DNA of 64,000 bases from Escherichia coli (GTDB taxonomy: Bacteria; Pseudomonadota; Gammaproteobacteria; Enterobacterales; Enterobacteriaceae). The notes below the pieces were generated by a model that saw only the letters and a list, made by a program, of their open reading frames with translations, did no database searches and was not told the DNA's origin. Where the stretch lies: NCBI RefSeq assembly GCF_013122565.1, contig NZ_CP053258.1; one strand, given 5' to 3'. Position numbers and translations under genes: made by a program. Shown piece after piece: positions 6,701 to 12,594 of this stretch (its first letter is position 1; each line of letters begins with the position of its first letter).

Positions 6701-7120
6701 AAAATCCGCAACGGCGAGCCAGTCACGCAAAACGAGCTTGATGAACTGGCGAAGCTGGTGCTGATCCAGAACCCCAACGTTGATATCCGGGCACTGAAAG
6801 AGTTCTATCCGCAGGCAACCGCCAGCCTGGATAAACTTTTGCGTACCATCATCGGGATGGACAGCGACGCGGTGGAAGTGCGCTTTGCTCAGTTCGCCGC
6901 TGATAACAGTCTAACCAGCCAACAACTGCGCTTCCTGTCATTGCTGAAAAACCACATTCGCGATTACGGCACCATTGAAATGCGGCAGCTCTTTGAACAG
7001 CCTTTTACGCATATCCACAACGAAGGCGTTACCGGTGTGTTCCCTGATATAGAGCAGATCGCCCGCCTGCAAAAGATAGTCGAAGAGCTGGGTGTTGTGA
7101 CCGACGCAGCGACGGTATAA
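3704..7120 (+). CDS. hsdR: Type I restriction enzyme R subunit HsdR (1138 aa)
   Basis: PD-(D/E)xK-like motif DYVLWDEAHKPLAVVEAKK; helicase motif I ATGTGKT, motif II IIADESH, motif III LTATP; followed by hsdM/hsdS. Likely ATG start at 3707 (RBS AAGG ~9 nt upstream); track start 3704 is TTG. Confidence 0.9.
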   Translation: MMEQSLNFEMLRSQWPELAELACMAEHYVHSDPESCLVKLRNYTELMVRWLYRQERLPEGIKANLYDLMNADVFTSMMPEAIIMKMDALRIHGNRAAHGGRIKAKDTYWLLKEAYLLGIWLYVRYAHGNVDDCPKFTLPPLTPSSGRADEKRLEDAIKAQDESRERELALQRALQQEQEKAEHLTQRLNEARARNQHVADILSIDEAETRRRLIDSRLLAADWNVGEELNNTDQVTQEHPVKEQPTATGDGYADYVLWDEAHKPLAVVEAKKTSVNAEQGRIQARLYADWLEKEYGQRPVIFYTNGYDIWLWDDHKTHGYPPRRVFGFYSKESLQYLIQQRETRLPLNRVPHVKDNEGKAVAGRLYQLETIARVSERFTNKYRQSLIVQATGTGKTRVAIALSKLMIDARWVKRVLFLCDRKELRKQAANAFNQFTNEPLYVVGKSKKADRQNARIYIATYPGMMKIMDHFDVGYFDLIIADESHRSIYNVYGDLFKYFDALQIGLTATPIDMVSKTTFGLFGCEGRIPTANYSLEDAIADNNLVPYEVVTHTTEFLREGIKREKLSDTQIRELEEQGIDPNTLEFDGKALDEAIYNKDTNRYILRNLMENGLKDRDGQLPGKTIIFARNHKHALLLNELFDDMYPQFAGRFCQVIDNYDPRAEQLIDDFKGLDESTNKELTIAISVDMLDTGIDVPEIVNLVFAKPVKSKVKFWQMIGRGTRLCPGLYGYDDNGKPLDKQKFRIFDHWGNFEYHELHTEEAEVTATKSLAQKRFEAWVMLGAAAQRKFDKQAVDLVAHQLREQINALDEKSIAVQEKWQQKAQYSDEKVLRQLSPKTQQDLLSVLAPLMQWLDVRGQSDAIRFDMDILAAQTARYTNPEELDVLWPAIVEKVERLPPHLAQVQQQGQRINQLRDLSWWKQASLEELEDIRIHLRGIMHLMEKDATPKFGSIQVDITEDANLIQTETRKTNIRSIDFKLYRQQVQGALEPLFQQNPVLKKIRNGEPVTQNELDELAKLVLIQNPNVDIRALKEFYPQATASLDKLLRTIIGMDSDAVEVRFAQFAADNSLTSQQLRFLSLLKNHIRDYGTIEMRQLFEQPFTHIHNEGVTGVFPDIEQIARLQKIVEELGVVTDAATV

Positions 7121-7134
7121 TACACGCATGACAA

Positions 7135-7160
7135 GCCCCGGCAGCGGGGCTTTTGTATTT
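7135..7160 (+). terminator. Rho-independent terminator-like hairpin after hsdR
   Basis: gccccg-gcag-cggggc stem-loop followed by ttttgtattt. Confidence 0.6.
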
Positions 7161-9990: not shown

Positions 9991-11678
9991 AAATTGTTTA
10001 TACACCTGATCGATCCTGGAGAGAAATCCCACCAGCAAAACCAGAACTTGGTGATGTTTTATCTCTGAGCAGTAATAATTGGGATGACTATGGATATAAA
10101 ACTACTCTAAACGCAAAAATATACATTAAGAATCAATCTATTTCATTTGATTTTTCAATTAAATTATTAATTGAAAATATCGATAACACGGCAATAAAGC
10201 TAGATGAATTATGTAAAGATGGATGGGATGGAATATTCCCCATCCCTAATACTAACTATATAGCTCTTCCATCTGATATTGATTTTTATCAAATACTCAT
10301 ATCTAAAATAGGTGAGGAATCAACAGTCAATCTTCTGAATGATCTGAACGATGCAGGTTTCAATAAAAATGTTTACCATAATGAAATATCTAACAGACTC
10401 ATAGAACAAGATGCCTTTAAAACGTCATTACTCCGAGAAAGTGGAGCAAATAAAGCCTATCTAGACGGTTATCTGATATTCCAAAATATTCACGCAGAAA
10501 TAAGAAACTTTCAGTTAAATATTTTAACGAAAAAAGGAGGTGTAAATAAGATACCATTTAAATTTGAATCTAATTTATTGCCTTATGATATTAATGTTAT
10601 TATTGGCCCGAATGGGATTGGTAAATCTCATTGCCTGAAATCACTTGTTGAATATTGGTTGCAAATAGGAATGGGGGAACAACGATTACTTGAAAAGAAT
10701 AAGCATACTCCATTTGATGAACGACCTAACATAAGTAAGCTTGTTCTTGTTTCTTATAGCCCTTTTGAAGAGTTCAGCCTAGATCTAGAAAAAGACAATT
10801 TACAAGATAAAAAGGCATATCAATATTTTGGTTTCAGGCAAATGAGAGATAATGGGACAATTGGTATCAGTCGAAACTTACCAGCTTTAAATTCAAGTGA
10901 GTCATTACTTGAAATGATATCTGATGATAAGAAATACCAATTCATTGAAAATCGAATAAATAAGCTCAACTCTGTCGATTCTGCACTCAAATCTGCTATT
11001 AGCTATGATTATTGTGTTCTAAGATTATCTCCAGAAGATAACTCATCTTATCTCGGGAAAGATATTGTCATAATTGATGGCGAAAAATATCTCCCTGCAG
11101 TAAATATTGTAAAATGGGCTGATCATTTAGATTTAATAAGGGATTCTATACTACTCAATGATGGTGTAATCTTTGTTAAAGATGGGGAAATTGTAAATCT
11201 TAGTTCTGGCCAACGATTATTTGTATATATAGCTATTAATGTTGTCGGTGCAATGAAAGAAAATAGCTTAATTGTGATTGATGAACCTGAATTATTTTTA
11301 CATCCTAACCTTGAAATAGAATTCATTGGGCTACTAAAAAAATTACTTAAATCATTTCGCTCTAAAGCTATTCTAGCTACTCATTCCCTATCTATCACAC
11401 GTGAAGTACCGTCAAAATGTGTACATATATTCCGCTACAAGGATGACGAATTTGAAATAGTCCCCCCGCCATTTGAAACATTTGGCGGTAATGTTCAGAG
11501 AATTTCTTCTTATGTTTTCGGCGATAAATCGATCTCTAAGCCTTTTGATGAATGGCTTGAGATGCAGCTTCAAGCTATTAAAGATCCTGAAAAATTAATT
11601 GAAATGCTAAATGAAGAAATTAATGAAGAAATAATCATGAAAATCATGAGTTTAGGGAAAAAGTATCATGGTCACTAA
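9987..11678 (+). CDS. ABC/SMC-like ATPase with ~200-aa N-terminal extension (PtuA-like; candidate defence ATPase, 563 aa)
   Basis: Walker A GPNGIGKS (aa 207-214, nt ~10604-10627); ABC signature-like LSSGQR (aa 405-410); Walker B LIVIDEPELFLHP (aa 428-440); H-loop ATHS; start overlaps hsdS stop; AT-rich. Confidence 0.75.
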   Translation: MKIVYTPDRSWREIPPAKPELGDVLSLSSNNWDDYGYKTTLNAKIYIKNQSISFDFSIKLLIENIDNTAIKLDELCKDGWDGIFPIPNTNYIALPSDIDFYQILISKIGEESTVNLLNDLNDAGFNKNVYHNEISNRLIEQDAFKTSLLRESGANKAYLDGYLIFQNIHAEIRNFQLNILTKKGGVNKIPFKFESNLLPYDINVIIGPNGIGKSHCLKSLVEYWLQIGMGEQRLLEKNKHTPFDERPNISKLVLVSYSPFEEFSLDLEKDNLQDKKAYQYFGFRQMRDNGTIGISRNLPALNSSESLLEMISDDKKYQFIENRINKLNSVDSALKSAISYDYCVLRLSPEDNSSYLGKDIVIIDGEKYLPAVNIVKWADHLDLIRDSILLNDGVIFVKDGEIVNLSSGQRLFVYIAINVVGAMKENSLIVIDEPELFLHPNLEIEFIGLLKKLLKSFRSKAILATHSLSITREVPSKCVHIFRYKDDEFEIVPPPFETFGGNVQRISSYVFGDKSISKPFDEWLEMQLQAIKDPEKLIEMLNEEINEEIIMKIMSLGKKYHGH

Positions 11679-12594
11679 GTTACAACTTCCCGAATATGAC
11701 TCTATTAAGGTACTCCGAACCATCATTTCAGAAAGAGAGAGATATAAAGATTTCTATGATAGCTTATCGAATGATTGGATAGCACATGTAGAAAGCTATT
11801 TGGAACATCATGGTGATCCACGCTTTATTACACCTCTCGACCTCTCTCTGTATATTTCAGAAGAATTAGTACAAAATGAAGAAGAGAAAACAACTGATGC
11901 CAATAGGCATATATCGGCGCAAGAAAGACTGACGCAAAAAAGGAAACAAACTCTAATTAATTTATACTCTCCTGCTGAGGGGAAAACTCCCTACGATATT
12001 CTTGATACTTTAAGACGAGGACATGGCCTGTTATTTTGCCCATGTTGTGGGGAACCAGGAAAGCCGACAACGTTAGACCATTATTTGCCTAAAACTATCT
12101 ATCCTGAATTAGCTATAATTATTGCTAACTTAACGCCGATGTGTAATGAATGTCAGCAGAATAAAAGTTCTGATTATTTTGATGAGGATGGTAACAAAAT
12201 TTACATACATCCTTATTTTGATCCTATTGAACAAGTTAATTTAATCATTGATATAGAAGAACCCTATGCTACTCCAACATTCAGGCTAAACATTACTGAG
12301 GATGGTGATGATAATGAGATTTATGAATTGCTAAGGCGACATATAAATGGTGTTAAATTTTTAGAGCGATTCGATGAGTTTTGTCGAAATGAATATATGG
12401 CATTATTGCGCACAATGTCATTAGAACGTCAAGATGCTCAACCGGATAGAGCGTCAAGAATAATTTGTCGATTCAAACGCCAATATGAGGGTCAGTCTCC
12501 AAATAGATGGGAGGCTATTTTCTATAGAGGGATATTGAATAATGCCGACCTACTTAATTATCTAGATCATGGAAACTTGCCTGATTTTACATAA
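11668..12594 (+). CDS. HNH-family nuclease (PtuB-like; candidate defence effector, 308 aa)
   Basis: HNH/zinc-finger pattern CPCC (aa 124-127), DH (137-138), N154, CNEC (159-162); start overlaps the upstream ATPase gene by 11 nt. Confidence 0.75.
   Translation: MVTKLQLPEYDSIKVLRTIISERERYKDFYDSLSNDWIAHVESYLEHHGDPRFITPLDLSLYISEELVQNEEEKTTDANRHISAQERLTQKRKQTLINLYSPAEGKTPYDILDTLRRGHGLLFCPCCGEPGKPTTLDHYLPKTIYPELAIIIANLTPMCNECQQNKSSDYFDEDGNKIYIHPYFDPIEQVNLIIDIEEPYATPTFRLNITEDGDDNEIYELLRRHINGVKFLERFDEFCRNEYMALLRTMSLERQDAQPDRASRIICRFKRQYEGQSPNRWEAIFYRGILNNADLLNYLDHGNLPDFT

Follow-up and report, generated by a model that had tools for sequence, protein, structure and literature searches.

A predicted Septu-like ATPase–HNH pair behind hsdS in a type I restriction-modification locus of Escherichia coli

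We analysed a 64,000-nucleotide stretch of Escherichia coli DNA (assembly GCF_013122565.1, contig NZ_CP053258.1; hereafter the window), in which the list of open reading frames (ORFs) and the raw sequence reveal a complete type I restriction-modification (R-M) system, hsdR-hsdM-hsdS, together with an ATPase–HNH gene pair, all on the plus strand between positions 3704 and 12594. The restriction subunit is encoded by hsdR (3704/3707-7120, 1138 amino acids), which matches the PADLOC profile REase_I over its full length (E = 3.2e-274); RefSeq relatives use the ATG equivalent to 3707, and the Pfam families HSDR_N, ResIII and EcoEI_R_C are recorded for its orthologues. The N6-adenine methyltransferase subunit is encoded by hsdM (7184-8818, 544 amino acids; MTase_I, E = 2.5e-192) and the specificity subunit by hsdS (8815-9990, 391 amino acids, GTG start; Specificity_I, E = 6.3e-140). 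With adjacent R, M and S genes, two target recognition domains (TRDs) and conserved regions, the system has the genetic hallmarks of type I R-M. The two remaining genes encode a PtuA-like ABC-type ATPase (9987-11678, 563 amino acids; PADLOC PDC-M01A) and a PtuB-like HNH nuclease (11668-12594, 308 amino acids; PADLOC PDC-M01B). HsdR reached neither of the NCBIfam cut-offs for the EcoKI type (332 against 729 bits) and the EcoAI type (231 against 550 bits). A link between the hsdR-hsdM backbone and EcoMII of strain EC958, a type ID-like enzyme recognising AACN4CTTT (PMC4659465), was not established, the EC958 region that we examined being without the locus.

The four genes from hsdM to the HNH gene are closely packed. 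At the hsdM/hsdS junction, GTGA forms a four-nucleotide overlap (8815-8818), with the Shine-Dalgarno sequence GGAGGGG located six nucleotides upstream; hsdS and the ATPase gene share ATGA, also a four-nucleotide overlap (9987-9990), and the ATPase and HNH genes overlap by 11 nucleotides, ATGGTCACTAA (11668-11678). Predicted Shine-Dalgarno energies are strong for hsdS (-9.8 kcal/mol), moderate for the HNH gene (-5.8 kcal/mol), and weak for hsdM (-4.1 kcal/mol) and the ATPase gene (-3.9 kcal/mol). The same starts are used in the RefSeq annotation of near-identical loci, and homologue alignments begin at the same residues, with M1 of the ATPase invariant and an MVxKL N-terminus common to the HNH proteins; together with the strong hsdS Shine-Dalgarno sequence, these lines of evidence support the starts independently. 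A preliminary description of the locus, made from the sequence alone, had proposed a translationally coupled four-gene unit on the basis of three start/stop overlaps, all of which are present, and our scan from 7152 to 12594, where the HNH gene ends, detected no plus-strand terminator-like site, in keeping with one packed unit without spacers. Four-nucleotide ATGA or GTGA overlaps are the commonest junction type in bacterial operons. The overlaps represent tight operon packing and are not in themselves unusual.

Between hsdR and hsdM lies a spacer of 63 nucleotides with a terminator-like hairpin and T-tract on the plus strand (7133-7160). The hairpin, AAGCCCCG-GCAG-CGGGGCTT, has an 8-bp stem with six G-C pairs and a GCAG loop, occupies 7133-7152 and is followed by TTTTGTATTT, which ends 24 nucleotides before the hsdM ATG. 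It was the sole strong plus-strand terminator-like site found from hsdR to 13785, and a 76-nucleotide segment that includes it has a predicted folding energy of -18.5 kcal/mol (z = -2.6). All ten related loci inspected, which represent seven enterobacterial genera, retain the hairpin; its stem is altered only in L005 and L086, its loop is shortened by one nucleotide in L003, and hairpin and U-tract are invariant across genera while the flanking intergenic bases differ. It has no further copy in the window and is therefore not a REP-like repeat, nor is it a known RNA family, since an Rfam scan of positions 1-16000 returned tRNA only. Judged by these sequence features, it probably functions as a terminator, in agreement with the preliminary description, which had placed a terminator-like hairpin shortly before hsdM. 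That description had also considered hsdR to be separated from the hsdM unit by this element, and here its reading stands only in part. The distance from the T-tract to the hsdM ATG is 24-31 nucleotides across loci, which leaves no promoter space, so every hsdM transcript must cross the hairpin, and the hairpin is therefore not a complete insulator, and some transcripts may read through all five genes. No plus-strand promoter with a 16-18-nucleotide spacer was reported between 5097 and 8938, and the promoter scan yielded nothing convincing for hsdM or for the ATPase gene. A perfect TATAAT at 7116-7121 overlaps the hsdR stop codon, with a poorly spaced TTGTGA 15 nucleotides upstream (7095-7121), a manual reading that is not decisive; if this site is used, its transcript would begin just 5' of the hairpin, at about 7128. 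The gene order hsdR-hsdM-hsdS and an apparent terminator after hsdR are shared with EcoKI (type IA), in which hsdMS have a separate promoter (reviewed in PMC12707154). The hsdR/hsdMS split by a terminator is thus the textbook EcoKI layout and hence expected, whereas the 63-nucleotide spacer without promoter space downstream of the hairpin differs from EcoKI.

At the other end of the unit, 3' of the HNH gene, a long AT-rich hairpin on the plus strand, AAAGGCATT...AATGCCTTT followed by TAATTT (12656-12711), is a weakly supported candidate for the 3' end of the hsdM-to-HNH unit. The region 12590-12740 folds at -19.9 kcal/mol (z = -2.0), and the hairpin arms are recognisable in L001-L004 and L080.

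Both proteins of the pair match the PADLOC phage defence candidate PDC-M01 over their full length: the ATPase aligns to PDC-M01A (E = 4.6e-239; residues 1-559 against positions 1-562 of 564 in the profile), and the HNH protein to PDC-M01B (E = 1.4e-107; residues 1-307 against positions 1-279 of 280), and the two genes are adjacent and overlap by 11 nucleotides. PDC-M01 derives from two-gene cassettes that lie within type I R-M, BREX and DISARM loci; two such cassettes are included in it, and the supplement of the defining paper lists 964 and 245 instances of them (Payne et al., bioRxiv 2024, 10.1101/2024.01.29.577857). That paper presents it as a candidate only, without anatomy, junction analysis or experimental test; and here, in contrast to a nested position between hsd genes, the pair follows hsdS at the operon end.

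The ATPase carries a Walker A motif GPNGIGKS (residues 207-214), an LSSGQ signature (405-409), a Walker B DE (432-433) and an H-loop histidine (H466), and residues G207, N209, G210, G212, K213, S214, S406, S407, G408, Q409, D432, E433 and H466 are invariant. The HNH core reads C124-x2-C127 ... D137-H138 ... N154 ... C159-x2-C162, in which C124, C127, H138, N154, C159 and C162 are invariant and D137 nearly so. Pfam assigns AAA_21 and AAA_15 to the ATPase and, weakly, HNH to the second protein. Single-sequence searches of the PDB gave only weak ABC-motif matches for the ATPase (E about 1e-4) and none for the HNH protein, whereas profile-based searches ranked PtuA first for the ATPase (E = 2.9e-8) and PtuB first for the HNH protein (E = 1e-4). 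A Foldseek search with the ATPase model (predicted local distance difference test score, pLDDT, 84) returned PtuA for all of the top 40 hits (E = 4e-9 to 2e-6). PtuA and PtuB are the best PDB matches by fold as well, and the predicted folds of both subunits resemble the solved PtuA and PtuB structures. The PADLOC PtuA profile matches the ATPase at E = 7e-48, far below the PDC-M01A score. Based on these profile and structure predictions, the pair appears to be a divergent Septu-like module, closest to PtuA/PtuB and outside the curated Septu thresholds, which bears out the earlier description of the pair as defence-like. Another candidate, the NCBIfam family TIGR04435 ('restriction system-associated AAA ATPase'), was ruled out at 51 bits against a cut-off of 300. 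Likewise, the suggestion that the nuclease might be gated by methylation status found no support, as no methyl-reading domain was detected in either protein, and we dropped it.

The likeness to Septu extends to gene organisation, with an ATPase gene followed on the same strand by an HNH gene, ABC and HNH motifs, and an overlap between the two genes that suggests a fixed stoichiometry. In E. coli Septu, PtuA and PtuB assemble in a 6:2 ratio; the PtuA oligomer restrains PtuB, ATP inhibits the nuclease, and activated complexes nick DNA or cleave tRNA-Tyr (PMC12640716; PMC13096335). Septu also includes the retron-associated type II Septu (Ec78/Eco7, Ec83/Eco4), whereas the pair described here has neither a reverse transcriptase nor a non-coding RNA. 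Sequence similarity to Septu is seen only around the Walker B and signature motifs and at the HNH core, and the HNH protein is longer (308 amino acids, against about 215-235). The ATPase also departs from PtuA architecture in that its Walker A lies at residue 207 and that of E. coli PtuA at K43. The additional sequence, residues 1-195 (9987-10571), is a conserved N-terminal domain modelled as beta strands followed by a helical bundle (pLDDT 80-96), for which we found no Pfam or PDB sequence match, and which may be a sensor or docking domain.

The five-gene cassette hsdR-hsdM-hsdS-ATPase-HNH occurs in E. coli, Lelliottia, Chimaeribacter, Rouxiella, Pectobacterium and Yersinia, and within E. coli it is found in three islands, at leuX, at selC and next to tia/leoABC. 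ATPase identity across these enterobacterial cassettes falls to 73% at the amino acid level, yet the hsdS-ATPase junction never opens: in nine intact cassettes it is a four-nucleotide overlap, a one-nucleotide overlap or a two-nucleotide gap (-4 to +2 nucleotides). A Salmonella copy at 72% identity is cut by a contig end. Further afield, a scan of one genome per species recovered 52 loci with an adjacent ATPase–HNH pair, spanning Alpha-, Beta- and Gammaproteobacteria, Granulicella, a Helicobacteraceae metagenome-assembled genome, Schinkia, Granulicatella, Peptostreptococcus and Streptococcus. The two genes overlap in 47 of the 52 (longest-ORF rule), whereas hsdS lies upstream in none of the 45 non-enterobacterial loci (58% identity or less), most of which have an upstream gap of more than 50 nucleotides or a divergent neighbour and no type I genes within 10 kb. 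The HsdM profile used was sufficiently sensitive, as in these genomes it found type I methyltransferases as distant as those of archaea and candidate phyla radiation (CPR) bacteria. Neighbours of the standalone pairs include IetAS, Gabija, a type II restriction endonuclease and a Nhi/AbiO-like protein. ATPase-HNH coupling is thus a family trait and hsdS-ATPase coupling a clade-specific acquisition. Linkage to hsdS, which the preliminary description had proposed to look for in homologues elsewhere, is confined to the enterobacterial clade (at least 73% amino acid identity), and the functional dependence on hsdM/hsdS that it had envisaged does not hold as a family trait, because distant pairs stand alone with their own upstream spacer.

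Several individual copies depart from the intact arrangement. In CP148326 (L001), the closest complete E. coli genome, a two-nucleotide deletion at window positions 11734-11735 shifts the HNH frame after codon 22, for which reason RefSeq annotates a shorter HNH ORF there; the copy in the window is intact. In E. coli RIVM_C019217 (L081, 8682-12601) and other OXA-244 strains, an IS1-bounded blaOXA-244 segment has inserted into the 3' part of the HNH gene and truncates the gene, leaving hsdRMS and the ATPase gene intact. An Arsenophonus sp. (L087, 5824-9605) carries a decaying cassette, with a 43-nucleotide hsdS-ATPase gap, an HNH gene split into ORFs of 78 and 169 amino acids, and no hsdR or hsdM called upstream. 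Separately, distant ABC ATPases without an HNH partner adjoin hsdS in a CPR bacterium (L063), Calditrichaceae (L074), Bacteroidia (L078) and Methanohalophilus (L079), lying between hsdS and hsdR in L063, L074 and L079; ABC ATPases beside hsdS therefore recur in very different lineages.

The position after hsdS does not always hold this pair. Among 5426 complete E. coli genomes, the hsdR-hsdM backbone (at least 95% nucleotide identity) is present in 427, and hsdS is followed by the PDC-M01 ATPase–HNH pair in 61-68 genomes; by an unrelated ABC ATPase (PDC-M55A/NsnB-like), starting eight nucleotides after hsdS, with a 298-amino-acid protein in 274; and by a carbon-nitrogen hydrolase, an 88-amino-acid protein and a 5'-nucleotidase (PDC-S08) in 17. 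The 298-amino-acid partner had no Pfam, NCBIfam or PADLOC match. In relatives with other cargo, the stretches corresponding to window positions 9987-12594 are 10167-12685 in both L082 and L084 and 10389-13503 in L083, all E. coli. The position after hsdS is therefore a variable cargo slot on a conserved hsdR-hsdM backbone. A comparable arrangement is DarTG2, an independent defence module beside hsdS of an E. coli type I R-M system, for which the authors considered this location to be a probable hotspot of recombination among defence systems (PMC12255303). That island differs in its toxin-antitoxin cargo, its order M-S-cargo-R and its repressor RptR, which is not present at the locus described here.

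The cargo is inherited together with part of hsdS. HsdS consists of a variable TRD1 (~8815-9265), a conserved centre (~9265-9400, IKLADDFLRATFLEMFGDP), and TRD2 with the C-terminal region (~9400-9990). In an alignment sample of 8 + 3 alleles, TRD1 differs among pair-bearing cassettes, while the protein sequence of TRD2 and the C-terminal region hardly changes and the corresponding DNA diverges in step with the pair (79-91% nucleotide identity). Where other cargo follows hsdS, both TRD2 and the HsdS C-terminal region are of another type, and the TRD2 DNA of the pair-bearing cassettes is present in 63 of the 5426 E. coli genomes, matching the set size of the pair. Base composition follows the same division, with a guanine-plus-cytosine (GC) content of 0.51 in hsdR and in hsdM (0.47 over the final 300 nucleotides of the latter), against 0.33 in hsdS and 0.32-0.36 across hsdS, the ATPase gene, the HNH gene and every cargo, in a genome of 49% GC. 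The pair and the TRD2 half of hsdS are thus inherited as one AT-rich block (~33% GC). Recombination is the simplest explanation for this linkage: cassettes share homology around the hsdM/hsdS start, within the conserved centre of hsdS and past the cargo, but none between TRD2 and cargo, so that these two travel together. The pair itself is mosaic, as seen by comparison with L002 and L004. Relative to the ST131-type E. coli cassette its ATPase gene is 76% and its HNH gene 99.6% identical at the nucleotide level, and relative to Lelliottia the values are 98.5% and 83%, which indicates recombination between the two genes of the pair.

Based on these observations, we propose, with moderate confidence, that a type I R-M system of classic layout has acquired an autonomous Septu-like module in its cargo slot behind hsdS and that this module is co-expressed with hsdMS. 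Under this proposal the pair would have no promoter of its own here and would be transcribed together with hsdM-hsdS; the ATPase would be translated mainly by ribosomes that terminate on hsdS and reinitiate at its weak site, and translation of the HNH gene would be coupled to the ATPase gene, the 11-nucleotide overlap setting the subunit ratio as it may do throughout the family. By analogy with Septu, an ATPase oligomer could keep the HNH nuclease inactive until a phage cue is received, and the released nuclease could then cut DNA or tRNA and halt infection. The pair is most likely a second defence layer that operates independently of HsdM, HsdS and HsdR, with its expression tied to the methyltransferase half. 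Swaps would be delimited by the conserved start and centre of hsdS at one end and by the flank of the island at the other, moving TRD2 and cargo together. The preliminary description had regarded the pair as wired to the modification/specificity half of the R-M system; its linkage to hsdS is indeed conserved in the clade, but it is an ordinary outcome of the gene order R-M-S and a cargo slot after hsdS.

Several points weigh against this interpretation. The AT-rich hsdS contains promoter-like hexamers, for example at 9665-9692 with a TG extension, and an internal promoter is therefore possible. Persistence of the cassette down to 73% identity with the same TRD2 is also what a real functional dependence would produce. 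As regards the Septu assignment, the ATPase scores 45.6 bits against the PtuA family NF041760, for which the NCBIfam cut-off is 500, the NCBIfam scan of the HNH protein gave no match, PtuB/TIGR02646 included, and the 195-residue N-terminal domain is absent from PtuA, so that trigger and target may differ from those of Septu. Finally, our literature search found no experimental phage defence by PDC-M01, two later papers listing detections only.

Of the alternatives, one would have the enterobacterial pair act as a guardian of the R-M enzyme in the manner of PrrC, docking on HsdM2S, perhaps via TRD2 and the C-terminal region, and firing when a phage anti-restriction protein inactivates the enzyme; this corresponds to the back-up for R-M escape suggested in the preliminary description. 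We regard this as unlikely, although the zero-spacer hsdS junction in nine intact cassettes, the complete linkage of the pair to a single TRD2 allele while TRD1 varies, and retention of the cassette while the pair diverged to 73% amino acid identity are all consistent with it, and the uncharacterised N-terminal domain of the ATPase might also fit. There is precedent in PrrC, an ABC-ATPase-controlled nuclease located next to hsdS in the type I hsd operon of EcoprrI (type IC) and activated when T4 Stp inhibits the enzyme, and PARIS is another ABC-ATPase guardian (PMC12707154); moreover, standalone Septu cleaves tRNA-Tyr (PMC13096335), and PrrC cleaves tRNA-Lys. However, PrrC is one polypeptide with a C-terminal anticodon nuclease, lies between hsdS and hsdR and resides almost exclusively in type I loci, whereas the pair consists of two proteins with an HNH nuclease, follows hsdS at the operon end and occurs mostly away from type I systems. 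The absence of an upstream hsdS from all 45 homologues at 58% identity or less, most without type I genes within 10 kb, also argues against this reading, since the family must then detect infection with no type I enzyme to help it. That this backbone carries unrelated cargoes at the one position points instead to a recombination hotspot, and the TRD2 linkage is simply explained by the HsdS C-terminal region differing between cargo types, which leaves no homology to separate TRD2 from cargo. In addition, the HNH gene is broken by frameshift or IS1 insertion in some lineages in which hsdRMS is intact. A more specific version, in which the Enterobacterales pair has been domesticated as a dedicated guardian, made off hsdS, docked on the TRD2/C-terminal half of HsdS and released when anti-restriction proteins disable the enzyme, seems to us more doubtful still.

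It is likewise improbable that the overlaps merely reflect genome compaction after insertion and that the pair is expressed mainly from its own promoter in the AT-rich 3' part of hsdS, where H-NS may silence it, which would uncouple its expression from that of hsdMS. Plus-strand promoter-like sites do lie in hsdS at 8938-8967 and 9665-9692, the number of such sites (37) exceeds that in shuffled controls (28.4 +/- 4.4), and standalone homologues have their own upstream regions. The DNA concerned is 32-36% GC in a 49% GC genome, and such AT-rich DNA typically contains spurious intragenic promoters. However, the promoter matches are weak (9 of 12 positions) and expected in AT-rich DNA, and the site at 9665-9692 falls within TRD2 coding sequence and is constrained by the protein. 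Transcription from hsdMS would in any case continue into the ATPase gene, as no terminator separates it from hsdS, and the weak Shine-Dalgarno sequence of the ATPase gene (-3.9 kcal/mol) suits reinitiation better.

An R-M system needs methyltransferase expression independent of hsdR, which counts against a single operon of all five genes. Such an operon, in which the hairpin would serve as an attenuator or RNA-stability element and a promoter upstream of hsdR would wire the pair to the restriction subunit too, is very unlikely: it would accommodate the short distance from T-tract to hsdM, the lack of a reported site with a 16-18-nucleotide spacer between 5097 and 8938, the position of the sole good -10 element (7116-7121, with its -35 poorly spaced) upstream of the hairpin and the need for hsdM transcripts to traverse it, but the hairpin with its U-tract is canonical and invariant across genera against variable flanks, and in EcoKI, the best-studied system of this gene order, hsdR is followed by a terminator and hsdMS have a promoter of their own (PMC12707154).

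The cassette lies in an island whose boundary is marked by a P4-type integrase gene (14151-15419, minus strand; NCBIfam integrase domain, E = 1e-80) and leuX, encoding tRNA-Leu(CAA) (15619-15703, minus strand; ARAGORN and Rfam), with ahr and idn genes beyond in the syntenic genome. Between the HNH gene and the integrase, a minus-strand gene (12843-13847) encodes a DUF4365/DUF1817 protein, so named in RefSeq, with a restriction-endonuclease-like N-terminus (PADLOC Aga_REase-PNTD, E = 5e-23). Probably another defence gene, it also shows weak PDC-M02A matches, is convergent with the HNH gene and forms part of the AT-rich block (GC 0.31). On the other side, divergent from hsdR on the minus strand (595-3216), are genes for a WYL-domain protein (2446-3216), a dynamin/LeoBC-like GTPase (1393-2406) and a 261-amino-acid hypothetical protein (595-1380). 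The same trio precedes the cassette in CP148326 and HBUT-L and is not found in ST131-type islands. WYL proteins are regulators of other defence systems, and the protein encoded here may therefore control the hsdR promoter.

Much of what the locus displays has been described individually: the pair belongs to a catalogued candidate family, modules next to hsdS are known from PrrC, DarTG2 and the PDC set, and the hsdR/hsdMS layout is established. The locus is thus a good but unsurprising example of a known piggy-backing pattern, to which we add the predicted Septu-like fold, the restriction of the hsdS fusion to one clade, the use of a single backbone by different cargoes and the linkage between TRD2 and cargo. 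Dependence of the pair on the R-M enzyme, if real, would make it a second R-M guardian after PrrC with a distinct mechanism, a two-protein, HNH-based PrrC analogue, and would explain the unchanging TRD2. Clinically important E. coli lineages carry the cassette, and in carbapenemase OXA-244 strains the resistance transposon sits in the HNH gene. More generally, defence modules riding on R-M operons shape the spread of immunity genes, and in this case the hsdR-hsdM backbone is conserved whereas its AT-rich tail, comprising the second half of hsdS and the cargo, can be swapped, so that DNA specificity and a second-line defence would be exchanged in a single recombination event.

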